Origin: a virus
Lineage: Duplodnaviria; Heunggongvirae; Uroviricota; Caudoviricetes
DNA: 64,000 bases
Reading direction: 5' to 3' (one strand)
Virus record (IMG/VR): IMGVR_UViG_3300027692_000003
Each line of letters opens with the position of its first letter. Position 1 is the first letter of the stretch. Below the pieces are notes generated by a model that ran no database searches, was not told the DNA's origin, and saw only the letters and a list, made by a program, of their open reading frames with translations. Positions 6,597-51,833 of this stretch are shown piece after piece. A program made the translations under genes and the position numbers.

Positions 6597-8090
6597 CTAT
6601 CCCCCCAGCCCGAGGAACGATGCGGGGATCCGGCTGCGGGATACGAGACGGCACCTGCATCCGGGATGGCACGGGTACGCCGGGACCGTACTGGGGCTGT
6701 AGGGGCCGCCGTCCGCGTTGTCCTGGCATGCGGCACACGCGGACGCGCCCGCTTCCCAGGTGACCTCGATCAGGGCGCCGGTGACAGCAGCGGCCACCCG
6801 CCGCCACAGGGACAGTGCACCGCCGCCGATCGCGGCCCAGAGCCCGTTCCCGCCGAGGACGGCAACAGCCCGGACCTCGGTACCGCCCGCCGTCTGGACT
6901 GCGGCGCCCAGCATGTCCTCATAGGTGCCGTCGTCGGCGGCCTGCTTCGCGAGGACCCGGGCCAGGTCCACGGCCGCACCGGTGATGATGACGTCGAGGA
7001 GGTCCCTGGCCCGCCCCGGCAGCCCAGGATCGGCGGCGAGCCGGTCATACGCTGCCTGATAGGCGGCATCGGTGCCGAACCCGGTGTGGCCGTCCTGGGC
7101 CGCTGCCATCGCGAGTGCCCCGGCTTCGCCTTCCGCGGCGGCAGCCAGCAGTGCCGTCTCTATGGCGGCGAGGAGGGTGTCATGGCCGCGGGACTGGTAG
7201 ATGCCCCGCAGCCAGCCCAGCGCCACCGCGGTGGCCTCGGTCCTCCAGAACTCCTGGTCCGCGCTCTCGCGGGGGAGGTAGATGGCGGCCCGGTAGCGGG
7301 AGATCAGCTTCCGGGTGTTCAGGGAGTGGATGCAGGTACGCCATGCGTCCAGGATCACTGCGAGATGCGCGGCGAGGAGGGTGCCGGCGCGGGCCTGGAT
7401 CGCGGCCTGCTGGCCTTCGAGGAGGCCGATCGCCAGGATGGTCTCCAGGACAGCCGGGTCATCCCAGTGGCTGACGGCGAGGGCGGCGGCGGCGGTGCAC
7501 CCGGCGCGTACCCGGGGAGTCATCGGGCCGCCGGACAGTGCCCACCCTGCCGCGTATGCCTCGCGGGCCGCGGAAACCACGGCGGCATCGGGCTGTTCGC
7601 TGGCCGCGAACGGGTAGTCGGTGCGGTCGCTTCCGTGCATCACCGAGACCGCGGGGAAAGTCACCGGGATGGTGGCGAGGCGGCCGACCGGGTCCTCGCC
7701 GTCCGGGCCGAGGTAGGTGAGGGTCAGGTGCGGGCAGTACCCGTAGACGGACGGGGAGGTGATCCCGCGGGCACCCAGCCGGTCCGCGGCGTCGCGGTGC
7801 AGGTCGTCGAGGGCGGGTGAGCTGGCCAGGGCGACGATGACGTCCTGGTCCCCGCCGGTGAAGCGGGCGTGGCCGGAGATGACGGCGGTTACCGGATCGC
7901 GGCGGGCGAGGATCTCAGCGACCGCCTTCAGCGCCTGCGGGTCCACGCCGGCGGCGTCGCCGGTGTAGATGACGGTGCAGTGCAGGTCGCTGGCGTGGAG
8001 GCCGCCCGGGATGGCGAGGTCGGCGGCGAGGTCGGGTGGCGGGTAGAGGGCGATCATGCAGGACCCGGAGTAGTCAGGCTGGTCCGCCAT
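6597..8090 (-). CDS. 2H phosphoesterase (Acb1/2'-5' RNA ligase-like) fused to Mu-gpF-like minor head protein
   Basis: Start MADQPDYSG at 8090. Two HxT motifs (LHCTVIY, PHLTLTY) in the first ~160 aa; C-terminal CAACQDN...PAYPCHPGCRC typical of head-morphogenesis proteins. Confidence 0.8.
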   Translation of the reverse strand: MADQPDYSGSCMIALYPPPDLAADLAIPGGLHASDLHCTVIYTGDAAGVDPQALKAVAEILARRDPVTAVISGHARFTGGDQDVIVALASSPALDDLHRDAADRLGARGITSPSVYGYCPHLTLTYLGPDGEDPVGRLATIPVTFPAVSVMHGSDRTDYPFAASEQPDAAVVSAAREAYAAGWALSGGPMTPRVRAGCTAAAALAVSHWDDPAVLETILAIGLLEGQQAAIQARAGTLLAAHLAVILDAWRTCIHSLNTRKLISRYRAAIYLPRESADQEFWRTEATAVALGWLRGIYQSRGHDTLLAAIETALLAAAAEGEAGALAMAAAQDGHTGFGTDAAYQAAYDRLAADPGLPGRARDLLDVIITGAAVDLARVLAKQAADDGTYEDMLGAAVQTAGGTEVRAVAVLGGNGLWAAIGGGALSLWRRVAAAVTGALIEVTWEAGASACAACQDNADGGPYSPSTVPAYPCHPGCRCRLVSRSRIPASFLGLGG

Positions 8091-8153
8091 GCCAGCCTCC
8101 CCGCGCTCAGGAACCGGGGGACTGCCAGCTGCTCTGAAGCACACACAAGACAG

Positions 8154-15020: not shown

Positions 15021-16663
15021 GCGGCGGGGAGGTCCCGGAGCGCCTCAGAGAGGCGTGCCTGGTAGGCGGCGTACCGGATCCGCCATGCCTCATCGGGTTC
15101 CGCGGCGGGTTTCCCGGCCGGTGCTTTCCTGCCCGCCGTCGGCTTGCCTGCAGGTGCTGCCTTCCCCTGCCCCCGCCCCTGCTGCTGGTCCTTGCCGGTG
15201 TCGTCGTCCTGGTCCCCGTCAGGTTCCGGTCCCTGGCCAGGTGCGGGCGGGGCGGGGCCGGCTATAGCCAGAGGGGCGCTGCCCTTGCTGTCGATCATCG
15301 CCTGGGACATGTCCCGCATCTGGGCCCACAGGACCAGGTTCTGCCGGTCGACCAGCACTGCGTCATCGCCGCCGGCTACGGGCGGTTCCCCGATCTCTGC
15401 CCTATACCTGTTCAAAGTCCAGGACCCGTTGCGGAGCCGGCTGTCCCGGATTACCTCGATGGTCTGGGAGTCCCGGAGGTCGATGTCCTTGAATTTCAGG
15501 TGCCAGCCGGTGACCTTGAAACCCTGCTTGGCGAGGTGGAAGTTCAGTTTCTCCAGCACCAGTTCAGCGGTCGGCTGGCACGTGTTGACCTGGAATGTTC
15601 GGTTCTGGTCTTCCCCGGTGCCCCCGCCGATGTTCCCGCTTTCGATGATCCCGGCTTTAGCCGGGGGGACACCGTAGCCGGCGACGATCTCGTCGCGGCA
15701 CTGGTCCTTGAACAGCAGGACGTCGGCGACTTTCCCGAACTGCAGCTCGACGATCTTCCCGCCGTTTTTGGTGACGACGGGGCGGCCCATGTTCCGGGGT
15801 CCGACGTTCCGGGCCATGTGCTGGGAAACCCACCGGTTGATGTCGCCGTCCGACATGCCCTGCGGGAAGTCGACATGGAAAATCGACGGGAGGCCCTTGC
15901 GGAACATCTCCTTGCCGCACGACGCCGCGAACAGCCACCCCGTGATGGGCAGCAGGGCGGCCTGTGTCGCGGAGATCCCGAACACCCCCGAGCGGGGGGC
16001 GTCGAGGGCGATGTGGATGACCTCGCGGGGCTCGAACTCGGCACGCTGCCCGAACTCGGTGACCTGCACGTACTTCGTGATGATGCCGTGCTCGTCCGCT
16101 ACCGGGGTGGTGGTGGGGCAGTCCAGGTTGTAGAGGGCGACGGGGATGTCCCCCACCCAGGAGACCTCGATGTAGGCGTCGCCGAACACTTCGAGGTCGG
16201 TGATGACGTTGCGGAGCAGCTGCCGGATATCGGAGGTCGGGTTGCAGAACCCGATCAGTCTTTCGAGTGCGAGGACCTGCGGTGGCTTGTCGGGCTGCTG
16301 CTGGTCCCCTTCGCCGTCGTCCCGGTCCCAGTCCATGACGAGGCCGCCGGCGGTGATGGTCCGCGCGATCGCGTTCACCGACGCCCACGACCACGGGCAT
16401 GCCAGGTACGCCTCGTACAGTTCCTGCATGAGGCTGCGGCGGTCAGTCTGAGTACTGGTCCCCATCGCGGACGTGTACTCGTTCATCCCGCCGCGCGGGA
16501 TCCCCGTCACGTACCCGGCCCGTTCCGGGACCTTCGCCTGCCTGGCCGCCAGGGCGGGGGCAGCCTCCCGGATCTGCCACGAGTACCAGTCGGAGCGGAC
16601 GGGGCGGGCTGCGGCTACCTGCTCGACCAGGGTCGGGGAACGGACAGCGACATCAGCGGCCAT
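15017..16663 (-). CDS. Phage portal protein
   Basis: 548 aa, downstream of terminase; HK97-type portal features (EVIHI, G.S...AA, K.G...L.., GVPP...G, WTLNRYRAEIGEPP). Confidence 0.92.
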   Translation of the reverse strand: MAADVAVRSPTLVEQVAAARPVRSDWYSWQIREAAPALAARQAKVPERAGYVTGIPRGGMNEYTSAMGTSTQTDRRSLMQELYEAYLACPWSWASVNAIARTITAGGLVMDWDRDDGEGDQQQPDKPPQVLALERLIGFCNPTSDIRQLLRNVITDLEVFGDAYIEVSWVGDIPVALYNLDCPTTTPVADEHGIITKYVQVTEFGQRAEFEPREVIHIALDAPRSGVFGISATQAALLPITGWLFAASCGKEMFRKGLPSIFHVDFPQGMSDGDINRWVSQHMARNVGPRNMGRPVVTKNGGKIVELQFGKVADVLLFKDQCRDEIVAGYGVPPAKAGIIESGNIGGGTGEDQNRTFQVNTCQPTAELVLEKLNFHLAKQGFKVTGWHLKFKDIDLRDSQTIEVIRDSRLRNGSWTLNRYRAEIGEPPVAGGDDAVLVDRQNLVLWAQMRDMSQAMIDSKGSAPLAIAGPAPPAPGQGPEPDGDQDDDTGKDQQQGRGQGKAAPAGKPTAGRKAPAGKPAAEPDEAWRIRYAAYQARLSEALRDLPAA

Positions 16664-24308: not shown

Positions 24309-24578
24309 ATGAATCCTGATACGGACCGGTGGGTCCGCAGCGACGAGGCCCGGAACAAGCTCCGGGACCTGCTCGACGAAGTGACCCGCGGCGGCGCGCA
24401 CGTCTACGTGCTGCGCTACGACAAGCCAGAGGCCGTCATCGTGCCCGTCGGGTGGTACGAGGAGATGCGGGCCGTGCTGGCCGACCACGACATCAAGGCC
24501 GGACCGCACTCCGAGGACACCTCGAAAGAGCAGCTCGCTGCCTACCGGCACGCGGACGGCTCAGGTGAACCGCAGTGA
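24309..24578 (+). CDS. Phd/YefM-family antitoxin-like protein
   Basis: SDEARNKLRDLLDEVTRGGAHVYVLRYDKPEAVIVPVGWYE. Confidence 0.85.
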   Translation: MNPDTDRWVRSDEARNKLRDLLDEVTRGGAHVYVLRYDKPEAVIVPVGWYEEMRAVLADHDIKAGPHSEDTSKEQLAAYRHADGSGEPQ

Positions 24579-26381: not shown

Positions 26382-26452
26382 GATTTCCAGACTGGCGGGG
26401 CGCATTTATCCAGGCTGTCGGGGTGATCGTGTGCCCGGTTAAGTGACAGTTC

Positions 26453-26508
26453 CTTGCCTTCCCGGATACCGCTTGTGTGTCCAGTCCTGCGCATGTACAG
26501 TTATGAAC
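26453..26508 (+). promoter_or_regulatory. Second copy of the conserved box plus leaderless-type promoter
   Basis: cttgccttcccggataccgcttgtgtgtc, 25/29 identical to 24255-24283; TTGTGT-17 nt-TACAGT; ATG at 26509. Confidence 0.65.
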
Positions 26509-26916
26509 ATGAGCGAGACTTACTACCGGTTCCACCAGGGCGATGCCCCTGCATTCAGCGCCGGCAACGCATGGTCCGCGCTGTGGGGGTCAGAGTTCAG
26601 CGCCGACGGCACGCAGAACCGGTGCCACGGCTGCGACGGCGAGGGAACCGACTGGGACCGCGAAGACGGCACCTGCCAGACCTGCGACGGCACCTGCTGG
26701 GAGGACTGCCTGCGCGGCTACTCCTGCTGCTGGGACGCAGAATCACTCATCGACTACTTCGCCGAGCGCGGAATCCCCGCCGATGACCATGGCGTCGTGG
26801 TCATCTTCACCGGCCGCCGTGTCGGCAGCGGATTCGACGGCGAGCCGCTGGCCATCCCCGAAATCGTCACCGGGACCCTGACATGGGCTGAGTTCACCGC
26901 GAGGACGGCAGCGTGA
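26509..26916 (+). CDS. Protein with DnaJ-type Zn-finger (CxxCxGxG) repeats
   Basis: CHGCDGEG and CQTCDGTC, plus RGYSCC. Confidence 0.7.
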   Translation: MSETYYRFHQGDAPAFSAGNAWSALWGSEFSADGTQNRCHGCDGEGTDWDREDGTCQTCDGTCWEDCLRGYSCCWDAESLIDYFAERGIPADDHGVVVIFTGRRVGSGFDGEPLAIPEIVTGTLTWAEFTARTAA

Positions 26917-27875
26917 AGCTTACTCACCACCCGTTCCAGCGGGCCGGAGCGTGGTCGGCTTGCGCACTTACCGGCAAGCAGGAGCCGGCCCTTCTTGATG
27001 ACGGCAACCTGGATGACCTCGCCGCGATGATCAGCCGCGACGCCACCCGCGCAGCGCTCGCAGCCAAGGACGGACCCGGCTACGCCTGGTGGAAAGTACT
27101 GCTTGCCTGCTACCCGAACAGCCCGGCCACGCACGCGGCACGGGCACGCTGGGGCCAGGACTGCATCGGCGCGAAGATCGCTGACCTTTTCGCGCCCGAC
27201 GACGACGCCCGCATCGAAGGCCCCTGCGACCTGTGCGGCACCCCGGCGTCAGCCCGCTGGGGCAAGTCGCTGCGCCCCCTGGCCGCACCGGCGAACCACG
27301 TCAACAGCCAGCCTGCGGGCGGCTGGCCGATCTGCCGCGAATGCCGGATCGCCATGTGGCTGCTGCCCTACGGGTCGGCCAGCAACGGCCACCTCATACT
27401 CACATGCGGCACCGTAGCCGGCGAAGCGCTTGAGGCGGCCATCGCCCGGAACTGCGTCACAGCGAACCGCCATGCGATCGACGCTGGGCTGGCGGCGTGG
27501 CCGGAAGGACACGAGTGGCTCAGTCCCGTCTTCGCCGGCCTCGCCGAGCATCCCGGCGCCCCCGAGCTTCTCCGCTGGCGCAACGACAACAAGGCGCCAT
27601 TTCTCACACCGCTGCGCGTCGACGAGAACACGGCCCTCCGCATAGAGGCGTGGGAGCATCTCGCTGCCCTGATCGACAGCGCCCCCGCCACCCAGGACGG
27701 CATCCGCGAGCTCGCCGCCGAGCAGCTTGGGCTTCTCCGCGACCGCGAGTGGATCATCCGGAATGCGTACGCGGCCGGCCTGAACGTCAACCAGATCCAC
27801 AAGCGGTCCGGCATCAGCCGGACCACCATCTACAAGACTGTCGCCGGTAACGGCGGGACAGGAGAGACATCGTGA
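26913..27875 (+). CDS. Stand-alone truncated Cas8b1/Cst1 (CXXC-CXXC)-like protein fused to a C-terminal HTH
   Basis: LTHHPFQRAGAW, YAWWKVLLACYPNS, PCDLCG, GWPICRECRIAMWLLPYG and WRNDNK follow, in order, the motifs I recall for actinobacterial type I-B Cas8b1. The last ~45 aa (AYAAGLNVNQIHKRSGISRTTIYKTV) is an HTH. Confidence 0.7.
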   Translation: MKLTHHPFQRAGAWSACALTGKQEPALLDDGNLDDLAAMISRDATRAALAAKDGPGYAWWKVLLACYPNSPATHAARARWGQDCIGAKIADLFAPDDDARIEGPCDLCGTPASARWGKSLRPLAAPANHVNSQPAGGWPICRECRIAMWLLPYGSASNGHLILTCGTVAGEALEAAIARNCVTANRHAIDAGLAAWPEGHEWLSPVFAGLAEHPGAPELLRWRNDNKAPFLTPLRVDENTALRIEAWEHLAALIDSAPATQDGIRELAAEQLGLLRDREWIIRNAYAAGLNVNQIHKRSGISRTTIYKTVAGNGGTGETS

Positions 27876-28168
27876 AGCGCATCCTTGACCATTTCAGGTA
27901 CCGCCGCTGCCCTCAGTGCGGCCACCTCGCCGCAGTGGTGACCACCGGTTTCGCGCCGGCGCCCCTCATGACGCACGTCCGCCGCGTCCCGCTGTGGATC
28001 CGCCATCGCGGATGCCCCGACACCCCCGTCAGCAAGGCTGCCCGGCACATCGCGTGCCAGCCGGCATGGGAGGCACCCCTCGCCGACTGGGAACTGGCGA
28101 TCCTCGCCGAGGTCGAGGTCGCCAATACCCGCGTCGCCGCCAACGGCGAGGCTGGAGAATCGTCATGA
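27872..28168 (+). CDS. Hypothetical protein (CxxC)
   Basis: 98 aa, RCPQCG, GTGA overlap. Confidence 0.6.
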   Translation: MKRILDHFRYRRCPQCGHLAAVVTTGFAPAPLMTHVRRVPLWIRHRGCPDTPVSKAARHIACQPAWEAPLADWELAILAEVEVANTRVAANGEAGESS

Positions 28169-28689
28169 CCACCGTTTACAACTACGTCACCCAGCAGTAC
28201 GGCGGGTACCACGAAGCCGTCAGGTTCGCCAGCTTCCCGCAAGCCGTCCGCTGCGCGGCATCCGATGTGCACCAGCTGGTGTGGCTGCACGAAGCCGAAG
28301 CGCACGGCGAGGCAGATGCCCGGCCGCAGGAGATCCTGGCACCCATCGCGCGTGTCGCCGTCTATGCCCTCGCCGCCCCGCAGTGGGCGGCGGCCATCGG
28401 CACCGGCGACTCCCGGAACCCCGGGACGCACGGCCGGGAGGCTGCGGACAGCATGCCCGCCCGCGTCATTGCGGCGCAGGCCGCCCTTGAAGCGATGACC
28501 GGGGCCGGGTACTGCCTCGAATGGGCTTACGCCAAGGAACTGATCGCTTACGAGGCGGCGAGCGCGCTCACCGCGCTCTGGTATGCGAACCGGAACGTCC
28601 GCGGCAGCACGCCCCTCGGTGCGCCGGCCATCAGGGAAATCCTTCGCGCAGTGGCGGGCCAGCCGGTAGCGGTAGGTGCGGCATCATGA
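28165..28689 (+). CDS. Hypothetical protein
   Basis: ATG 28165 overlapping the previous stop; 174 aa. Confidence 0.65.
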   Translation: MTTVYNYVTQQYGGYHEAVRFASFPQAVRCAASDVHQLVWLHEAEAHGEADARPQEILAPIARVAVYALAAPQWAAAIGTGDSRNPGTHGREAADSMPARVIAAQAALEAMTGAGYCLEWAYAKELIAYEAASALTALWYANRNVRGSTPLGAPAIREILRAVAGQPVAVGAAS

Positions 28690-29000
28690 CCACCGAGACC
28701 ACCACCGAGACGCGCGAGGACCGCGAATCCGAGGCCCGCACCACCCTGGCGCGGCACGGCGTCCACCTGGACTCGCACCGGCCGTTCTCCCTCGAGGAAA
28801 TCGAGAAGCTGGCCGAGGTCGCCGCGTTCTTCCGCGACAACGGCGCCGATGGCCACCCCGCCCGCGTCCGCTTCGCCGACTTCTACACCGCCACCTACGG
28901 CGATGTAGGCAACGGGGCGCGGGCGCTCACTGTCGAGACCGAGGAGCCGATGGAGATACGCCCCCTCGGTGACCGCAGGATCATCATCAAGCGGGCATGA
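28686..29000 (+). CDS. Hypothetical protein
   Basis: ATG 28686 overlapping the previous stop; 104 aa. Confidence 0.65.
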   Translation: MTTETTTETREDRESEARTTLARHGVHLDSHRPFSLEEIEKLAEVAAFFRDNGADGHPARVRFADFYTATYGDVGNGARALTVETEEPMEIRPLGDRRIIIKRA

Positions 29001-31302: not shown

Positions 31303-32683
31303 CCGGTACGCCGTCGTGATCCCCGAGGAGCCCGCCGGGGCCGTGCGGTCCTGGCGCAAGCTGGTCAGTGCCGTCGACGGCGGCCGCGGCGGCGCCTACG
31401 CGCTCCGGGGCGGCTGGCTGGACCCCGACAAGGCCTACGAGCTCCCCGCCAGCGCCCTCGTGGTTGCCTGCGACACGTTCCCCGAGGTCCGAGAGGTCGT
31501 CCTCTACAAGGCCGCCGGCGGGACACTGGAGACGGTGAAGCAGTGGACGCTGCGGACCCCGCTCGGGAAACGCGTCACCGATTTCACGGCACGCAGGCTC
31601 GCTCCGGGCGCCTCCGGGCACCGGGCGGTCCCGCTGGAGGACCTCGCGAACCGGTACGACGGCCGCTGCCGCACCTGCCGGCAGCCCGTCCCCGCCCTCA
31701 CCGGACGGGCGTGGACCGCGCGGGACGGCAGCCGCACGGTCGCGCACCGGGAAGGGGAATGCCCGCCGCCTCCGCCTCCGCCGCCCCGGGTGGAACCGAA
31801 CCTGTACGCGGACGCGTGCCTGTGGTGCGGCGGCTGGGTCGCCGCGGAGACCGGGGCGGCGATCCTGGGCGAGCAGGCCGAGCCGGGCCGCCGGGGCCTG
31901 TACCGGGCCGTCCACCAGGTGTGCCCGCCCGATCCGCTGCCGGGCCCGGTGAACTCGCGGGAGGCATGGTGCTCGGAATGCTCCGGGATCGTCGCCGGGC
32001 AGGCTGGCTGCTGGGTCCTCCAGCCAGGCGGCGGCAGGCTGCTGCGCCACCACCCGGCCTGCCCCGGCACCGCCCCCGCTGAGCCGCGGTGGATCGTCGG
32101 CGCTGAAGGCCGTACAGGCGACGCGGTGACCGCCCGTGCCGACCTGCGCCGCGGCGGCCCGGCCATCCCCGAGACCGTTCCGGGGTACCGGATCCTGGAC
32201 GATCAGGGCTTGTACATCCAGTTCTACGGGGTCATCACCGCCGTCATACGCGGCAGGTACGGCAAGTGGGAGACCCAGGTCCGTGCCGCCACCCTGGACG
32301 AGGCGGCACCGCTGGTCGCCGCCGAAGCGGAGCAGGCCCTGATTGCCGCCCCGCACGATCCCGGGTTCCGGGGTGCGTGGCATGCGGAGATCATCGGCCC
32401 GCACCGGCCGTGGCTGGCCCGCCTCACCGGCTATGACCCGGACTACGGGCTGCGCCGCGTCTTCCTCCGCCCGAAGGAAGACTGGCTGGACGCGAACCGG
32501 AAAGGGACCCGCGGCGTGCAGTGCTGGTGGACCCTCGAGCTGAACGAGGTCTACGAGGCGTGCTGGCGGCAGACGTGGAACTCCGAACTCCGCGAGTTCC
32601 TCCGGGTCACCCCCGAAGGGGACGTCACCACCATCACCCGGGAGGAGGCCGAAGCATGGCTGGCAATGCCGCACGTACGCTGA
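31292..32683 (+). CDS. Multidomain protein with three CxxC..H..C zinc-ribbon repeats
   Basis: NRYDGRCRTC, NLYADACLWC and NSREAWCSEC repeats; C-terminal RPWLARLTG..P.YG..R.FL...DANRKGTRG domain; overlaps the ibrA-like start. Confidence 0.7.
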   Translation: MTSDRYAVVIPEEPAGAVRSWRKLVSAVDGGRGGAYALRGGWLDPDKAYELPASALVVACDTFPEVREVVLYKAAGGTLETVKQWTLRTPLGKRVTDFTARRLAPGASGHRAVPLEDLANRYDGRCRTCRQPVPALTGRAWTARDGSRTVAHREGECPPPPPPPPRVEPNLYADACLWCGGWVAAETGAAILGEQAEPGRRGLYRAVHQVCPPDPLPGPVNSREAWCSECSGIVAGQAGCWVLQPGGGRLLRHHPACPGTAPAEPRWIVGAEGRTGDAVTARADLRRGGPAIPETVPGYRILDDQGLYIQFYGVITAVIRGRYGKWETQVRAATLDEAAPLVAAEAEQALIAAPHDPGFRGAWHAEIIGPHRPWLARLTGYDPDYGLRRVFLRPKEDWLDANRKGTRGVQCWWTLELNEVYEACWRQTWNSELREFLRVTPEGDVTTITREEAEAWLAMPHVR

Positions 32684-33918
32684 GCCGCACCAAGCGGGGC
32701 CTCGGCATCGACGTCCTCACCGCCGCCCGGCAGCGGATCCGCCGGGTCTTCGACGATTTCCCGGATGTCTATTGCTCTTTCAGCGGAGGAAAGGACAGCG
32801 GCGTCTGCCTGGAACTCGCCGCGGTGGAGGCACGGGCGCGGGGCCGGCGGCTCGGCTGCCTCATCGTGGACCTCGAGGCCCAGTACCAGCACACCATCGA
32901 CTACATCCACCTCATGCTCGAGCGGCACGCCGATGTCCTGGACGTGTACTGGGTGTGCCTGCCGATCTCCCTCCGCAACGCCGTGTCCCAGTTCCAGCCG
33001 AAATGGCAGTGCTGGGACCCGGACGCCCGCGACTGGTGGGTGCGGGAATACCCCGTGCATCCCGGGGTCATCACCGACCCGGGGTTCTTCCCGTTCTTCC
33101 GGCGGGGAATGGAGTTCGAGGAGCTCGTCCCCGAGTTCGGCTGGTGGCTGTCGGAGCAGCACGGCGGGAAGCTGACGGCATGCCTGGTCGGGATCCGGTC
33201 CGATGAGTCACTCAACCGGTACCGGACCATCGCGTCCCGGGTCAAGCGCGTCCACGAGGGACTGCGGTGGACGACCTGGACCGGGCATGCCGCCTACAAC
33301 GCCTACCCGGTCTATGACTGGCGGACCGAGGACATCTGGCGGTACTACGGCAAGACCGGCACCCCCTACAACCAGGTGTATGACCTGATGCACCGTGCCG
33401 GGGTATCCATCCACCAGGCCCGCCTGTGCCAGCCGTACGGCGATGACCAGCGCAAGGGCCTGTGGCTCTACCACACCCTCGAACCCCGCACCTGGTCCAG
33501 GGTCGTCGCCCGGGTCCAGGGCGCCAACTTCGGTGCCCGGTACGCCCGCGAGACCGGGAACATCATGGGCCGCATCCAGATCACGAAACCGGACAGCATC
33601 ACCTGGGAGCAGTACGCCATGGGCCTCCTGGACTCCATGCCGGAGGACACCGCGGAAGCGTTCCGGTGCAAGATCGCCTGGTTCATCCGCTGGTATGAGA
33701 ACAACCGCGGGTACGGCGGCGGCATCATCCCCGACGACGGCCCCCTCGGTAAAGGGAGCCCGTCATGGCGGCGGATCTGCAAGGTCATCCTCAGTTTCGA
33801 TTATTACTGCAAAGCGCTCACCTTCAGTGCGCCCGCGCATCCCGCCGCGTTCGAGGCGTACAAGAAGCGGATGGCGGCCCGGCGCCAGGAGTGGGGTTAC
33901 AGTGACCGGGGCCTGTGA
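32656..33918 (+). CDS. PAPS-reductase-like/DUF3440 protein (IbrA/YbdN family)
   Basis: YCSFSGGKDS PP-loop, VDLEAQY, LVGIRSDESLNRY, YPVYDWRTEDIW, RLCQPYGDDQRKGL, SWRRICK.IL..DY.CK.L.F. Confidence 0.9.
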   Translation: MAGNAARTLSRTKRGLGIDVLTAARQRIRRVFDDFPDVYCSFSGGKDSGVCLELAAVEARARGRRLGCLIVDLEAQYQHTIDYIHLMLERHADVLDVYWVCLPISLRNAVSQFQPKWQCWDPDARDWWVREYPVHPGVITDPGFFPFFRRGMEFEELVPEFGWWLSEQHGGKLTACLVGIRSDESLNRYRTIASRVKRVHEGLRWTTWTGHAAYNAYPVYDWRTEDIWRYYGKTGTPYNQVYDLMHRAGVSIHQARLCQPYGDDQRKGLWLYHTLEPRTWSRVVARVQGANFGARYARETGNIMGRIQITKPDSITWEQYAMGLLDSMPEDTAEAFRCKIAWFIRWYENNRGYGGGIIPDDGPLGKGSPSWRRICKVILSFDYYCKALTFSAPAHPAAFEAYKKRMAARRQEWGYSDRGL

Positions 33919-34525: not shown

Positions 34526-34911
34526 AGCTGCTCTCCCTCACCAGCGCAGACCCCCGGTTCTACCCGCTCCTGGGCCGGTTCCTCGCGAACCGGGACGTCG
34601 TCGCCTACCTCGGCGGCCACCTGTGGGACGACCCCGCCAAGACCTGGACCATCGCCATCAGCACGGAGGGGGTCCGCGGGTTCATCGCCACCGTCCCATC
34701 CCGCGGCGCGGTCAAAGCCCAGTCCTGCTACGTCCTCGACGGCGAGGACACCCTCACCGGCGACCTGATCCGCGCCGTCGTCCAGGCACACGCCCCTTCA
34801 CCGGTCACCGCGGTGGTCCGCGCCGGCCACGCCGGGCCCTGGCACGAGGAAGGTTTCGTGACCGTCGCCGACAAAGGCCGTTTCCTGCACCTGGCCAGGA
34901 AAGGCTCCTGA
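34522..34911 (+). CDS. Degenerate GNAT-like paralogue of 33929-34315
   Basis: Shares FYPLLG..LA.R.V.A.LG...WDDP.KTW; lacks RGKG; GTGA overlap with the Phd-like gene. Confidence 0.7.
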   Translation: MKLLSLTSADPRFYPLLGRFLANRDVVAYLGGHLWDDPAKTWTIAISTEGVRGFIATVPSRGAVKAQSCYVLDGEDTLTGDLIRAVVQAHAPSPVTAVVRAGHAGPWHEEGFVTVADKGRFLHLARKGS

Positions 34912-34913
34912 CC

Positions 34914-35600
34914 ATGGATCTCCTGTCATCCGCCCTCGTCGACTCCGCGGCGGCCCTGTTCGAGCAGCTGGACGGCATCCCCGAAGCCGAGCGGATCGAG
35001 GTCATCAACGAGATCAGGCTCGCGTTGCGGGAGCATTCCCCGATGAAAGCTGAGCCGGTCGACTGCGTCCTGTGGGTGCCCTCGGCCCGTGTCGCCGGGA
35101 ACGAGTACAACCCGAACGTAGTCGCTCCCCCCGAGATGCGGCTCCTCACCAGGTCTATCGAAGCGGACGGCTTCACGCAGCCGATCGTGGCGTGGCCCGT
35201 GGGAGACGGCTATGAGGTGATCGACGGGTTCCATCGTCACCGGGTCGGCAAGGAGAGCAAGCCGGTCCGCGCACGGGTCCGGGGGCACCTCCCGCTGGCG
35301 GTGATCAACGGGGACCGGGCGGCCCTGGAGGACCGGCAGGCGGCGACAATCCGGCACAACCGGGCGCGCGGGGTGCACACGGTGGACGGCATGAGCGAGA
35401 TCGTCACCGACCTGCACAGACGAGGGAAAGGGGACGAGTGGATCGCCGCCGAGCTCGGCATGGACCCTGACGAGGTCCTGCGGCTGCGGCAGACCGCCGG
35501 TATCGCCGAGCTGTTCTCAGGCCAGGAATTCTCCGAGGCCTGGGAAGCGGACACCTGGGCCGGGCAGGGCGCCGCCGAGCAGCCCGGCAGTGACCTGTGA
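34914..35600 (+). CDS. ParB/Srx-like protein (IbrB/YbdM family)
   Basis: NEYNPNVVAPPEMRLL..SI..DGFTQPIV...EVIDGFHR...ATIRHNRARG.H...IAAELGMDPDEVLRL.Q..G.AELF. Confidence 0.9.
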   Translation: MDLLSSALVDSAAALFEQLDGIPEAERIEVINEIRLALREHSPMKAEPVDCVLWVPSARVAGNEYNPNVVAPPEMRLLTRSIEADGFTQPIVAWPVGDGYEVIDGFHRHRVGKESKPVRARVRGHLPLAVINGDRAALEDRQAATIRHNRARGVHTVDGMSEIVTDLHRRGKGDEWIAAELGMDPDEVLRLRQTAGIAELFSGQEFSEAWEADTWAGQGAAEQPGSDL

Positions 35601-47414: not shown

Positions 47415-48890
47415 TCAGTCTGTCGTAGTGTCCATCGCTCCGAGAGATGATGCAATTGCAGCGAACTGGTCCAGAGCCGCTTGCAGGTCCTCGACGATCT
47501 CGGCGGCAATCAGCTCTGGAGCTGGCAGGTTACCGGTATCCTCCAGCGATTCGTCGCGGAGCCAGAAGATGTCCAGGGACGCCTTATCTCTCGCGGCCAG
47601 CTCGTCATAGGAGAACGCCCTGAACCGCTCCGTCTCCGTGCGCTCGTGGCGGTCCGCCGGGTTGTAGCAGGCCACGAAGTCATCAAGGTCCGTCCGCACG
47701 AGAGCCCGGGTCTTCAGCGTGAAGTTCTGGTTGGTGCGGAAGTCGTAGATCCACAGCTTCTGCGTCCACGGGTTCTCCGACGGCGGCTTGCGGTCGAAGA
47801 GCAGCACGTTCGCCTTCACGCCGCCCGCGTAGAAGATCCCGGTCGGCAGCCGCAGGAGGGTGTGCACGTCGCACTGCTCCAGCAGCTGTCTCCGTACCGT
47901 CTCGCCCGCGCCGCCCTCGAACAGGACGTTGTCGGGTACGACAATGGCGGCGCGACCGTTGATGGTGAGCAATGACCGGACGTGCTGGAGGAAGTTGAGC
48001 TGCTTGTTGGAAGTAGTCGCCCAGAAGTCCTCGCGGAGGTAGCTCATCTCCTCCCGTTCGGTCTCGCCCTGGGCGTTGACCACCTTGTAGGAGGACTTCC
48101 TGCCGAACGGCGGATTGGTCAGTACCATGTCGAAGTGGTCCGACGGAGTGGACCTGAGCGAGTCATCCACGGTGATCAGGCTCGGACTTTCCGGTGCACT
48201 GATCCCGTGAAGCAGGAGGTTCATGGCGCACAGCCGAGCGGTTGCATCGACGATCTCCCAGCCTCGCAGCGCCACGTCCCGGAGGAACCTCTTCTCGTCC
48301 GGGTCAAGGCTGCCTGACTTCATCTGCTCGTAGGCGGCCAAGAGGAAGCCCCCAGTGCCAGCCGCCGGGTCGCATACCCGCATGGATGCCGTTGGCCGCA
48401 TGACATCCACGATGGCCTTGATCAGCGGGCGCGGGGTGAAGTACTGGCCTGCGCCTGACTTGACGTCCTCGGCGTTTTTGGCGAGCAGCCCCTCGTAGGC
48501 ATCGCCTTTGACATCCGCGTCGAGTGTCATCCACTGCTCGCGGTCGATCAGGTCGGAGACGAGCCGCTTCAGCTTCGCCGGGTCTTGGATTTTGTTCTGC
48601 GCCTTGCGAAAGATGACACCCAGGGTGCCGGGCCATTTGGCGAGTTCAGCCAGGACGTGCCGGTAGTGAACCTCAAGGTCGTCACCGTCCAGACGCACCA
48701 ACGATAGCCAGTCGAGGCCCCTCGGAACGATCGCAGGTCTGCTGAAAGGTGGGTGCGCCTGCTCATCGGCCATCTTTAGGAAGAGCAAAAAGGTTAGTTG
48801 TTCGATGTAGTCCTGGTATGACAGCCCATCGTCCCGTAGGACACTACAGTAGTTCCAGAGCTTCTGCACGATGGTGGCACTGTCGCTCAT
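47415..48890 (-). CDS. hsdM: Type I R-M methyltransferase subunit
   Basis: IVQKLWNYC.VLRDDG..Y.DY.EQLT.LLFLK, GAGQYFTPRPLI, DPAAGTGGFL, TNPPFG, AAIVVPDNVLFEGG. Confidence 0.97.
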   Translation of the reverse strand: MSDSATIVQKLWNYCSVLRDDGLSYQDYIEQLTFLLFLKMADEQAHPPFSRPAIVPRGLDWLSLVRLDGDDLEVHYRHVLAELAKWPGTLGVIFRKAQNKIQDPAKLKRLVSDLIDREQWMTLDADVKGDAYEGLLAKNAEDVKSGAGQYFTPRPLIKAIVDVMRPTASMRVCDPAAGTGGFLLAAYEQMKSGSLDPDEKRFLRDVALRGWEIVDATARLCAMNLLLHGISAPESPSLITVDDSLRSTPSDHFDMVLTNPPFGRKSSYKVVNAQGETEREEMSYLREDFWATTSNKQLNFLQHVRSLLTINGRAAIVVPDNVLFEGGAGETVRRQLLEQCDVHTLLRLPTGIFYAGGVKANVLLFDRKPPSENPWTQKLWIYDFRTNQNFTLKTRALVRTDLDDFVACYNPADRHERTETERFRAFSYDELAARDKASLDIFWLRDESLEDTGNLPAPELIAAEIVEDLQAALDQFAAIASSLGAMDTTTD

Positions 48891-50308
48891 GACGTGACCT
48901 TCTCTTGGGACGCGAGACTGGCGCGGCGCCGTCTCGGCTTCTGGCCATCAGATGCCGTCCGTTTTGCACTAATTCGTTCGAGAAGAACGGATGCTGGTTC
49001 GTCCATCGGATCCTGCGAAACGAGTTGGCCAGAGAATGCTGCAGCGAGAACAGCAAATCGGAGTCGTTGTTCCCTGACCTTGGCGGCCTGCAGGTCGGCC
49101 TCTAGTCTTTCGAGTGATGACAGGACTCGCTTGACCTCATTAACGATCCGGATGATTTCTGTGAACGGCGGGATGCCTACCACGGTAGCGTCGATTGACG
49201 GTGCGTTTAGGTTTAGCCGCCCGATGCCGGCGCTCTTCCCGATGAGCTGCCTCTGGATGTGCGGAGCCTGAAAGAGGAAGAAGAGATACTCTGAGAAGAC
49301 AATTGGCAGTCCGAACCGATAGAGAATCAAATAAGCCCCTGGAATCGCTGGGCGATCCTCGGCGATGAACGCGACGGTGCCGATGCTCCCCGTGCGAGTT
49401 ACGAGAATATCCCCAGGCATGACGTGGTATTTTTGAAAGTCGGATTTGCTCAACGCTAGTTTCGGTGCTTGGCCAACTCGTATTCGTCCGTAGGGTGTTA
49501 TGTCTGTCGTACGTAGTACCGGTACACCTGATGCGACATAGTCGCTGCTAGTAAATCGCGGCCCATACAGAGACCAATTCTTCAGTTCGCCGATAGTCGT
49601 ACGCACCCATCCGGGTGGATGGCAAGTCTCGCTACCTTCGAAGTTTTTATTATAAGTCTTCATCCAGACAGATGCGGGCTCATCGTTTAGATCTTGGGGA
49701 ATAAGCTGGCCCGTTACTGCAGCCTGAAGAACCGCCGCGCGCATTCGCTGAAGATTCTGCTGCACCCGGCCCAACGCTGCGGCTCCGGCGTTGATACGGG
49801 AGAACTGTTCCTCGATGGCAGCGACAATTCGCTCCTGCTCAAGCCGCGGAGGAAGCGGTATGCGGATACGCCGCAGTCCCGAGAGTGGAACAGTCATTTG
49901 GGCTGTCCCAGTCGCATATTTAGTCGCTTGATCGAAAATAGCTCGGCTACTCATAAGTAGCGCTATGAAGGAGGGGTAAATTTCGCGCGAGGGTCGCAGA
50001 ATGCCGATATGGCGTTGAACGCAGAACGGCATGTCGTCTCTTACCAGTGCGGAAATGCCATACGACCCAACTAGGGAGTAAAGCACATCGCCCTTCTGGG
50101 GGCGACGGACTGGATCGAGTGACTCAAAATATTCCGGTGGCACATGCCTGCAGCCCGTGAAGTCAAGCTTCTGAGTTCGGATATTGCCGATCACTAGGAA
50201 CGGTACCCCCGCCGGAACTTGAGGTGGGGCTTGATGATCACCGTCGCTGATTGAGGTGCAAACCTGAGATAGTTCTGCCCAAGCCCACCCCGTTGGTAGT
50301 TCGTTCAC
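48887..50308 (-). CDS. hsdS: Type I R-M specificity subunit
   Basis: ELPTGWAWAEL, two TRD regions, IPLPPRLEQERIV..IE..FS, L.AA..GQLV.QDP.DEPAS.LLERI; visibly lower GC. Confidence 0.95.
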   Translation of the reverse strand: MNELPTGWAWAELSQVCTSISDGDHQAPPQVPAGVPFLVIGNIRTQKLDFTGCRHVPPEYFESLDPVRRPQKGDVLYSLVGSYGISALVRDDMPFCVQRHIGILRPSREIYPSFIALLMSSRAIFDQATKYATGTAQMTVPLSGLRRIRIPLPPRLEQERIVAAIEEQFSRINAGAAALGRVQQNLQRMRAAVLQAAVTGQLIPQDLNDEPASVWMKTYNKNFEGSETCHPPGWVRTTIGELKNWSLYGPRFTSSDYVASGVPVLRTTDITPYGRIRVGQAPKLALSKSDFQKYHVMPGDILVTRTGSIGTVAFIAEDRPAIPGAYLILYRFGLPIVFSEYLFFLFQAPHIQRQLIGKSAGIGRLNLNAPSIDATVVGIPPFTEIIRIVNEVKRVLSSLERLEADLQAAKVREQRLRFAVLAAAFSGQLVSQDPMDEPASVLLERISAKRTASDGQKPRRRRASLASQEKVTS

Positions 50309-51318
50309 GCTGCCAAAGCCTCTGTCAACTCGTCAAGGAGCGGGGTGAGTCTGTCCCCGAAGACTTGTGCCGCCTTGCCGATGCCCCCATGCTCCACAAA
50401 GGGCGTGTACTCGAATGACTCTGGGGATATCCCGAGCTCTCCTGTGATGTTCTCTTTCATCCAGGTCAGCCACTGCAGCTGCTCCACCGTGAATGAGACC
50501 CGCTTCTGCTGCTGTGCGCTCAGCCATGCTGCAAACCGTTCCTCGACCTGATCGCGGAACGGGATTAGTTCCTCGTCCAGATGCAGGGTGTACCGTACCA
50601 GCGACACGATGTCAGTGAGCATCCTGTCACCAGAGCCGCGTACTTTCGACTGGTCGAGCAGCTCGTATGCGCGCCAGAGCACGTCCGGGGTCCACTGGCG
50701 CGGTGGGCGTTCGATGGCCCTGGCCAGCTCCTTGATCTCGGTGAAGGTTAGCCGTTCCTTATGCGGGCGGCTGTAGAGCACCTGCAGGGCTCTGATGTCG
50801 TCCTTGTGCTCCTCGATGTACTCCCTGAACGAGGAGATCATGGCGGAGGCCTTCCCGCGGGCCTCTGCGGAATGCCCGGCAAAGAGCAGCTTGTCCCAGC
50901 CCTCATCTATCGTCTGCACGTACGATTTGCGGACGTCAAGGATCGCGTTGCGTAGTCCGGGGTTCGTGGCCAGCGGTTCCAGGGCCTGGGTGAGCATGGC
51001 AGTCGCCATCGCGGCGACGGCGACGGGGTCGTCGGTGGACTGGCCTGCCGCTTCGGTAGCGGCGATTTGCTGGTCGGGATCGAGCGCATCGACCAGGTGG
51101 TGGGCGATCGTGCCCAGGTCGGTGCCTTCGGCCAGGCCGGTGAGCACGTCCCGGTCATCCTTAGTCAGATGCTTGTCGAGGCGGGCGAGGCGCCCGGCGA
51201 TTGAGGATGCGACCTGCGGGTCTCTGCTGCCGAGAGCGACCAGCTTGAACAGCTCCTTCAGGCTCTGGGCTGGCTTGCGTTCCAGAGGTTGTACGGTCTC
51301 GGCGAGCGGGGTGTCCAT
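50305..51318 (-). pseudogene. hsdR: C-terminal fragment of type I restriction subunit (no nuclease or helicase domains)
   Basis: PLERKP..SLKEL, DIRALQVLYSRP, LTDIVSLVRY...L.PF.DQVEERFAAWL, FT.EQ..WL, EHGGIGKA..VFG.RL..L.DEL.E.LA. Homology stops near 51333. Confidence 0.85.
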
Positions 51319-51696
51319 GACGCCGACACATCCGTCACCTTCCCGGGCATCGCGGCTATTGTCCCATCCGTACGGCGGTGGGTGCGCGGCATACTCGCCG
51401 ATTCCCCCCGCACCGACGACATGGAGCTCATCGCCTCCGAACTCGCAACCAACGCGATCAGGCACACCCCGTCCGGGACCCCGGGCGGCTCGTTCACGGT
51501 CACGGTACGGACCGGACCCGCGTGGGCCAGGCTCGAAGTCGCCGATACCGGGACCGGGGTGTGGTCCGCCCCGGAGGGCCAGGACCACGACGCCGAGTAC
51601 GGGCGCGGCCTGGAGATCGTCGCGATCGTGGCCGACAAGCTCGGCCACGACATCGGGCCGGCATGCCAGGTCATGTGGGCAGAGGTCCTCTGGTAA
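51289..51696 (+). CDS. HATPase_c anti-sigma-like ATP-binding protein (AbaA-like); 5' end uncertain
   Basis: TFPG....V..VRRWV, ELIASELATNAIRH, RLEVAD.G, EYGRGL.IV...AD..G; N-terminus abuts the hsdR fragment head-to-head. Confidence 0.8.
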   Translation: MYGLGERGVHDADTSVTFPGIAAIVPSVRRWVRGILADSPRTDDMELIASELATNAIRHTPSGTPGGSFTVTVRTGPAWARLEVADTGTGVWSAPEGQDHDAEYGRGLEIVAIVADKLGHDIGPACQVMWAEVLW

Positions 51697-51833
51697 GCCG
51701 CAGCACCGCACACCGGAGGGTTTTACCGCCGCTTACGGGCGCCTTACCCTATAGTGTGCGGACGGCCACAGACCGGTTATCACCTACGAGACAGTCGGCC
51801 AGGACCTCGCAGCCGGCGACTACAGTGAACCGC

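Follow-up and report, generated by a model that had tools for sequence, protein, structure and literature searches.

Why would a phage-like element encode one half of the large subunit of a type I-B CRISPR effector complex (Cascade) and stand apart from every other component of such a system? The question is raised by a 64,000-nt stretch of viral DNA (IMG/VR record IMGVR_UViG_3300027692_000003, hereafter the window), in which the second gene of a short operon encodes a 320-aa protein composed of the N-terminal domain (NTD) of the type I-B large subunit Cas8b, a linker and a helix-turn-helix (HTH) domain. A portal protein (E=7e-23) and the large subunit of a terminase are encoded in the window along with a capsid-like protein and a LysM/SLT lysin, so that it represents a phage or prophage; its source is a phage-like element of a high-GC actinobacterium, and megablast (20 kb) found no close relative in the phage collection. 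As argued below, an anti-CRISPR function is plausible, and the reading that we favour, at a probability of roughly 45%, is that the protein may be a Cas-derived anti-CRISPR protein (Acr), that is a defective large subunit, joined to an HTH resembling those of anti-CRISPR-associated (Aca) regulators.

The homology on which this reading builds is essentially certain: residues 1 to about 237 are truly homologous to the NTD of type I-B Cas8b1/Cst1 from actinobacteria. A HMMER profile of the N-terminal 265 residues matched 150 proteins at E≤1e-3, a number that drops to 109 at E≤1e-10. The matches fall into a short class of about 250–420 aa and a long class of 460–500 aa, the latter with E values from 1e-47 to 1e-40. 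One of the long forms, P0032 (480 aa), is located in a cas6-cas8b-cas7-cas5-cas3-cas4-cas1-cas2 operon of a 7.8-Mb genome (locus L004) and was aligned by BLASTP with residues 3–236 of the window protein (E=2e-40, 37% identity across 247 residues). Short and long forms alike show little or no variation at the four cysteines of a predicted zinc finger and at several other motif positions, and the motifs PNSPxTH, RWGK, LPYG and NDNxEP are common to the window protein and Cas8b1/Cst1. When species-representative genomes were scanned on the basis of a 30-sequence alignment, one of 91 sequences being too diverse for this purpose, relatives were found at 70 loci in Streptomyces, Kitasatospora, Frankia, Micromonospora, Nonomuraea and related genera; at 67 of them a long form (460–508 aa) stands inside a cas operon, mostly together with arrays.

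Curated profiles behaved differently from these direct searches. Neither Pfam (PF09706) nor NCBIfam (including its Cst1 model) nor the PHROGs matched the first 265 residues to Cas8, and a search of the PDB by sequence profile returned HTH proteins only. The PADLOC Cas8b model gave a weak but collinear match (E=1.4e-3, residues 2–193 on profile positions 3–195 of 477) and also matched four of nine family members, at best with 5e-5. An initial annotation, made by reading the sequence, had proposed a resemblance to Cas8b1/Cst1, which the HMMER, BLASTP and structural matches bear out; the TIGR01908-type profile that it had proposed as a check did not match in NCBIfam or Pfam, so that the resemblance could not be confirmed along that route and came to light with the PADLOC model and the direct searches alone.

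Comparison with Cas8 structures, likewise proposed at that stage, was successful. An AlphaFold2 model built from the 91-sequence alignment reached a mean predicted local distance difference test (pLDDT) score of 89.8, with values above 90 in the N-domain; a model from nine sequences was set aside as too poor (pLDDT 62). In the ESM Atlas, 482-aa actinobacterial 'Cst1' clusters matched with a template-modelling score of 0.84 by query (residues 1–258) and 0.48 by target, that is over half of the target, and clusters named Cst1/Cas8b1 in the AlphaFold DB matched with E values down to 4e-5. A further structural match is Cas8a of type I-A (PDB 7r2k chain Y, 333 aa), a natural NTD-only large subunit, which differs from the window protein in its location in cas operons and the lack of an HTH and shares 7% sequence identity with it.

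In the window protein, a linker and the HTH occupy the place where Cas8b1 has a Cas11-like C-terminal domain (CTD) of about 220 aa. The CTD is missing without vestige, the protein ending at residue 320 (460–500 in operonic Cas8b): a CTD profile derived from 68 operonic proteins had zero matches at E≤10 in the whole window, and a degenerate CTD in the linker or in the tails of other short forms was ruled out, the hhalign probability for tail against CTD being 0.2% (<1%). The loss of the C-terminal bundle claimed in the initial annotation is thus real, and all motifs quoted there are present and in the order given. The HTH is the sole part seen by curated libraries, with matches to Pfam HTH_7 (E=4e-4, 20.9 bits, under the gathering score of 23.8) and HTH_23 (E=8e-4, also sub-gathering). 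It alone matches the serine-recombinase family, the remainder being Cas8b NTD, and no catalytic resolvase domain lies beside it.

The gene also stands by itself. Neither tblastn nor profiles for Cas6, Cas7, Cas5, Cas3, Cas4, Cas1 and Cas2 derived from about 65 operons revealed another cas gene in the 64-kb window, and no CRISPR array, mini-array or solitary type I-B repeat was found there, in agreement with the first inspection, which had reported neither cas genes nor an array. The window is equally devoid of tRNAs and of Rfam families. As a functional Cas8b, the protein consequently fails two defining features, the CTD and the operon.

It had initially been proposed that the phage captured and shortened Cas8. 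The phylogeny replaces this view by that of an element carrying a member of an old Cas8b-NTD family resident on mobile elements. In a maximum-likelihood tree of 80 N-domains, rooted at its midpoint only, the short forms fall into one clade with support of 98/98 (27 short, 10 HTH-fused, plus a 496-aa protein that lacks the canonical CTD), sister to a clade (100/99) with all 21 operonic sequences sampled, while more divergent long forms lie outside both. Short forms are 34–45% identical to operonic Cas8b. Proteins with a C-terminal HTH constitute a tight subclade (100/99); in another subclade, the Cas8b NTD of P0018 (L007 481–1614) is preceded by a very similar N-terminal HTH, so that the fusion either arose twice or was permuted. 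The remaining short forms end in tails of 20–180 aa unlike CTD or HTH and mostly unlike one another.

That the gene is a functionless remnant of a decaying cas operon, or an artefact of annotation, is extremely improbable. Examples of truncated cas8b remnants are known, one of them beside cas6 (L075) and others as fragments within the operonic clade (P0035, P0044, P0045), but the short clade is separate and well supported and its open reading frames are intact in at least nine clusters of HTH-bearing proteins and some 30 further short forms. Furthermore, the ratio of nonsynonymous to synonymous substitution rates (dN/dS) against the 85%-identical orthologue of L095 amounts to 0.29 in the NTD, 0.11 in the linker and 0.15 in the HTH at a dS of about 0.33, from which we conclude that all parts of the protein are maintained by selection. 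Together with a conserved partner gene and promoter described below, the selection and clade data exclude decay.

Had homologues always stood inside complete cas operons, this would have told against the proposal of the initial annotation; those of the short clade do not. Of its loci, 10 come with 4 kb of context or more, and a cas gene is present at none of them; the surroundings mostly resemble those of phages or conjugative elements. Among the neighbours are an integrase, pairs of ParB-like and PAPS_reduct/DUF3440 genes, a DnaB/replication module on an IMG/VR contig and, at one locus, a GntR-NUDIX-FtsK-WhiB set typical of actinomycete conjugative elements. In the window, PAPS_reduct/DUF3440 and ParB_N genes (an IbrA/IbrB-like pair at 32521–33918 and 34623–35600, + strand) lie a few kb from the short Cas8b-NTD gene. 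The same pairing recurs in the otherwise different elements L003, L092 and L094, and a ParB-like gene is present in L006; this recurrent neighbourhood may reflect shared element ancestry or a functional link.

Two further observations concern relatives of the protein. The viral contig L006 (IMG/VR contig IMGVR_UViG_3300012942_001156), the short Cas8b-NTD gene of which lacks an HTH, contains a mini-array of five repeats at 15245–15529, with a period of 61 nt and a repeat of about 28 nt (GTGGGATCCCTACGCGCGAGGACGACGG) that is unlike the type I-B repeat of the operons; cas genes are absent within the 17 kb examined. Streptomyces sp. CB02056 (L005/L027, L053) has a canonical type I-B operon plus a second, solo full-length Cas8b paralogue of 471 aa, which is 47% identical to P0032 and groups on the tree with the operonic copy of its own genome (L053). 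As it is surrounded by Prim-Pol/D5_N, DUF6009 and small uncharacterised genes, it is a complete large subunit borne by a mobile element.

What could a solitary NTD do? In Cascade, the Cas8b NTD sits on Cas5, reads the protospacer-adjacent motif (PAM) and holds the non-target strand (roles of NTD and CTD: PMC11096372). Having kept the Cas5-facing fold and lost the belly domain, such an NTD is an obvious candidate for the role of a poisoned large subunit. It would compete with host Cas8b, early in infection or following transfer, for the Cas5/CRISPR RNA (crRNA) end of Cascade, and complexes containing it would be defective, which would make it a 'subunit-poisoning' anti-CRISPR in the manner of AcrIB3 and AcrIB4. 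The fused HTH would serve as an Aca-like repressor acting on the conserved promoter region of its own operon, and the zinc-knuckle protein encoded upstream might be a co-factor. A predicted complex of the N-domain with an operonic Cas5 taken from a stand-in host lends weak support, with a score of 0.49 against 0.00 for the best control (agreement between runs in at least 62% of contacts, partner pLDDT of at least 86). The mark that it passed is reached by 58 of 80 solved complexes and two of 110 mismatched pairs, and a pass at 0.60 or under was obtained for just seven of the 80 solved complexes and for both passing mismatches; as Cas8b-Cas5 complexes have already been solved, this pass may reflect likeness only.

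Precedents for Cas-derived inhibitors come from Listeria mobile elements, in which AcrIB3 is a Cas5 homologue that integrates into Cascade and AcrIB4 a homologue of the last 90 residues of Cas8b (10.1101/2023.06.24.545427; PMC13131331). Both inhibit type I-B systems and prevent binding of the target, and in either case the proteins group in a clade distinct from genuine cas genes (10.1101/2023.06.24.545427). The window protein has the features of such Acrs in that it is a homologue of a subunit of type I-B Cascade, is encoded on a mobile element outside cas loci and belongs to a clade of its own; mimicry of a subunit is the proposed mode of action in either case. It differs in corresponding to the opposite half of Cas8b from AcrIB4, which represents the CTD/Cas11 part, and to another subunit than AcrIB3; moreover, the Listeria proteins are from Firmicutes, have demonstrated activity and no fused HTH, whereas the protein studied here is known from its sequence. 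Acr-Aca fusions offer a second comparison, AcrIIA1 and AcrIF24 being examples. HTH-type Aca regulators bind and repress acr promoters and may be fused to Acrs, as is the Aca12 domain of AcrIIA36 (PMC13551039). A candidate inhibitor domain joined to an HTH is common to these and the window protein, but their inhibitor domains are not Cas homologues, and the HTH is here of the resolvase/transposase type and a putative DNA binder. CasPR-type transcriptional silencers, which are CapR+AP2 proteins of unrelated architecture, were set aside as a model.

A conserved promoter region ahead of the operon, taken together with the fused HTH, would fit self-regulation. The Cas8b-NTD-HTH gene is the second of five + strand genes (26509–29000) whose stop and start codons overlap throughout, its GTG start overlapping the preceding stop codon as GTGA (Table 1). 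The zinc-knuckle gene lies directly upstream of a Cas8b-NTD gene, again with overlapping stop and start, in the window, in L001 (48% identity), in L007 (51%), where it precedes the permuted gene for P0018, and in L095; on the viral contig L006 it is situated away from the Cas8b-NTD gene (39% identity), and in L003 it is reduced to a vestigial mini-ORF with an identical GCGTGAAGCT junction. Its product has no Pfam or PHROG family and is not a Cas protein. The 28-nt box ahead of the operon is kept in L001 and L095 although the flanks diverge; gene order and conservation of the box agree with the original description of the gene as second in an operon with its own conserved promoter box. The putative -10 hexamer ends 7 nt before the ATG, and the promoter overlaps a CATGTA/ACATGTA motif. 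Such proximity of -10 and start codon is typical of actinobacterial leaderless promoters; a strict sigma-70 scan found no promoter at the operon start. L001, L003, L007 and L095 likewise have a TANNNT hexamer, located 7–11 nt upstream of the ATG, together with an ACATGTA-type palindrome, and across the five loci the conserved box and the ACATGTA-type motifs overlap the putative -10.

Table 1. Positions of the Cas8b-NTD-HTH gene, its parts and its operon context in the window.
Feature	Position	Strand	Remarks
Conserved noncoding box GTGACAGTTCCTTGCCTTCCCGGATACC, 28 nt, just 5' of the putative -35	26443..26470	+	Unique in the window (0 expected)
Putative promoter: -35 TTGTGT (26473–26478), 17-nt spacer, -10 TACAGT (26496–26501)	26473..26501	+	Read from the sequence
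Partner gene; 135-aa protein whose conserved N- and C-terminal modules flank DnaJ-like CxxCxGxG zinc knuckles	26509..26916	+	Directly upstream in several loci
Cas8b-NTD-HTH gene (320 aa)	26913..27875	+	Homologues known; dN/dS 0.26 against the L095 orthologue
Cas8b1/Cst1 N-terminal domain, residues 1–237	26913..27623	+	
CxxC...CxxC zinc-finger motif (C105, C108, C141, C144)	27225..27347	+	Cysteines invariant among 30 aligned short and long forms, and nearly so among 91
Two-helix linker, residues 238–276, in place of the Cas11-like C-terminal domain	27624..27740	+	Helices 238–256 and 262–276; pLDDT 65–70; dN/dS 0.11
Resolvase/transposase-type helix-turn-helix, residues 277–312	27741..27848	+	Three-helix HTH
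Three downstream coupled genes (98, 174 and 104 aa)	27872..29000	+	Overlapping stop/start codons; no Pfam or PHROG matches

The window is part of a 165-kb metagenome scaffold. A number of observations weigh against an anti-CRISPR function. No known acr or anti-defence gene adjoins the Cas8b-NTD-HTH gene as judged by Pfam and PHROG searches, and the window's own promoter contains no clear inverted repeat. A comparison of 1,674 spacers, taken from type I-B arrays at 74 loci, with the window and 11 related loci gave no full-length matches but only partial ones of 24–36 nt. Two matches in the window (E values of 7e-6 and 1e-4) are inside the range of shuffled controls (0–1 matches per run, best E 6.7e-6). 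A type I-B spacer from Streptomyces radicis (L017) agrees in 25 of 25 contiguous bases with L094 (17985–18009), in the SNF2-helicase gene of the element that bears P0046; this match exceeds the shuffled controls yet spans only about two thirds of the spacer, and since the remainder is unmatched, the site is no clear protospacer. In the sole isolate genome with a short form, G001, a type I-B Cas5 was not detected while the positive control did show Cas5, which indicates that the short family can persist without its presumed target. Finally, among 401 Streptomycetaceae genomes searched, type I-B Cas8b was found in 26 (about 6% of sampled species) and the short form in none, that is no co-occurrence with type I-B was seen.

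The last two results are equally arguments for an exapted DNA-binding or regulatory protein without any remaining link to Cascade, an alternative that we consider unlikely but to be taken seriously. The zinc-finger NTD, which in its Cas8b context contacts both double- and single-stranded DNA, and the HTH, perhaps together with the partner, would then constitute an early regulator or an accessory factor of replication or partition. Such a role would be in keeping with the location in an operon of small genes of the early type, close to HTH, PAPS_reduct/DUF3440 and ParB_N genes, a setting that recurs in the elements named above, and also with the age and divergence of the short clade and with a conserved partner that is not a Cas protein. 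On the other hand, purifying selection covers the whole NTD including the WWKVL, GWPxCR and NDNxEP segments, which it shares only with operonic Cas8b, Cas-derived Acrs have published precedent, and the docking prediction with the stand-in Cas5 leans, if weakly and possibly through likeness only, towards a retained Cascade contact.

Two points touch the supposed defect itself. An NTD-only large subunit is functional in type I-A (Cas8a), where Cas11 is a protein in its own right, and type I-B hosts produce free Cas11b (PMC11096372). Loss of the CTD need therefore not render Cascade defective, and the statement in the initial annotation that the protein cannot license Cas3 is an assumption. The same two points would favour a functional alternative large subunit or adaptor that joins host Cas5-Cas7-crRNA and free Cas11b in a working, re-purposed Cascade, which we regard as improbable. 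Altered PAM choice, or tethering to specific DNA via the HTH, would in that case allow regulation, exclusion of competing elements or diversion of Cascade from the phage. The initial annotation had put forward such an adaptor between host Cascade and DNA as a possible function, next to a dominant-negative anti-CRISPR. Two independent HTH-NTD fusions would suggest that DNA targeting is coupled to the function of the NTD and not the task of a separate regulator, and the solo full-length Cas8b of Streptomyces sp. CB02056 (L027, L053) shows a large subunit on a mobile element in a genome with a canonical operon. Most members of the short clade, however, have no HTH and bear unrelated tails, no array or repeat is carried, and several further steps would be required. 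A variant of this idea appears quite improbable as well: here the phage would supply a replacement subunit and not an inhibitor, the hybrid Cascade would be anchored by the HTH at defined DNA sites for the phage's own regulation or for competition, and the partner would act as an assembly or exchange factor. Weighed against these alternatives, a decoy subunit under the control of its own HTH is the reading that we retain as the leading candidate.

Other parts of the window deserve brief mention. Amid the structural genes, a gene at 6597–8144 (-) has a product of 515 aa, which contains a 2H phosphoesterase domain (2_5_RNA_ligase2, E=8e-11) and shows a weak, sub-threshold similarity to Acb1 (E=2e-4), which acts against cyclic-oligonucleotide-based anti-phage signalling systems (CBASS); by its sequence, the product could be an anti-defence enzyme degrading cyclic-nucleotide signals. 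A stretch of low GC content at 47415–51711 (-; 0.58–0.64 as compared to about 0.70) contains parts of a type I restriction-modification system, namely HsdM (N6_Mtase, E=5e-64), HsdS and a 468-aa open reading frame in which similarity is limited to the C-terminal domain of the R subunit (EcoEI_R_C), so that the gene for this subunit may be truncated. The stretch could be an island, or it could mark the edge of the phage-like region. The operon upstream of that described here opens with a gene for a Phd/YefM-type antitoxin (24309–24578, +; E=4e-8); the 184-aa product of the overlapping downstream gene belongs to no family and could be its toxin partner.

Poisoning of type I-B Cascade by viral Cas mimics has been published before, as have orphan viral cas8b1 genes. 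Katz et al. catalogued 358 orphan viral cas genes (10.1101/2023.06.24.545427), and their Table S3 lists cas8b1 matches spanning about 350 aa in Lachnospiraceae phages from IMG/VR (10.1101/2023.06.24.545427). Like the gene of the window, these cas8b1-like genes stand alone on viral contigs, with neither arrays nor operons, but they stem from another phylum, neither an HTH fusion nor a partner is described for them, and the actinobacterial family and L006 are not in the table. What is new is the half of Cas8b involved, the clade on actinobacterial mobile elements, the HTH fusions and the zinc-knuckle partner.

If active, the protein would represent the first case of an Acr-like protein originating from the N-terminal half of the Cascade large subunit, which reads the PAM and binds Cas5. 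For the type I-B systems of actinobacteria it would be the first Acr candidate of Cas origin, and it would exemplify in nature the fusion of a Cas mimic to its own regulator. In practical terms, type I-B tools in Streptomyces would gain a testable off-switch from the family. The clean split between NTD and CTD constitutes a natural experiment on the contribution of each half of Cas8b, and with the recurrent zinc-knuckle partner an uncharacterised protein gains a concrete functional context. A recent review stated that Cas proteins, in contrast to segments of CRISPR RNA, 'apparently were not' recruited by viruses on a broad scale (2024; PMC11656645). The existence of a clade of about 30 diverged Cas8b-NTD proteins on mobile elements argues for a wider recruitment of Cas proteins than stated there.

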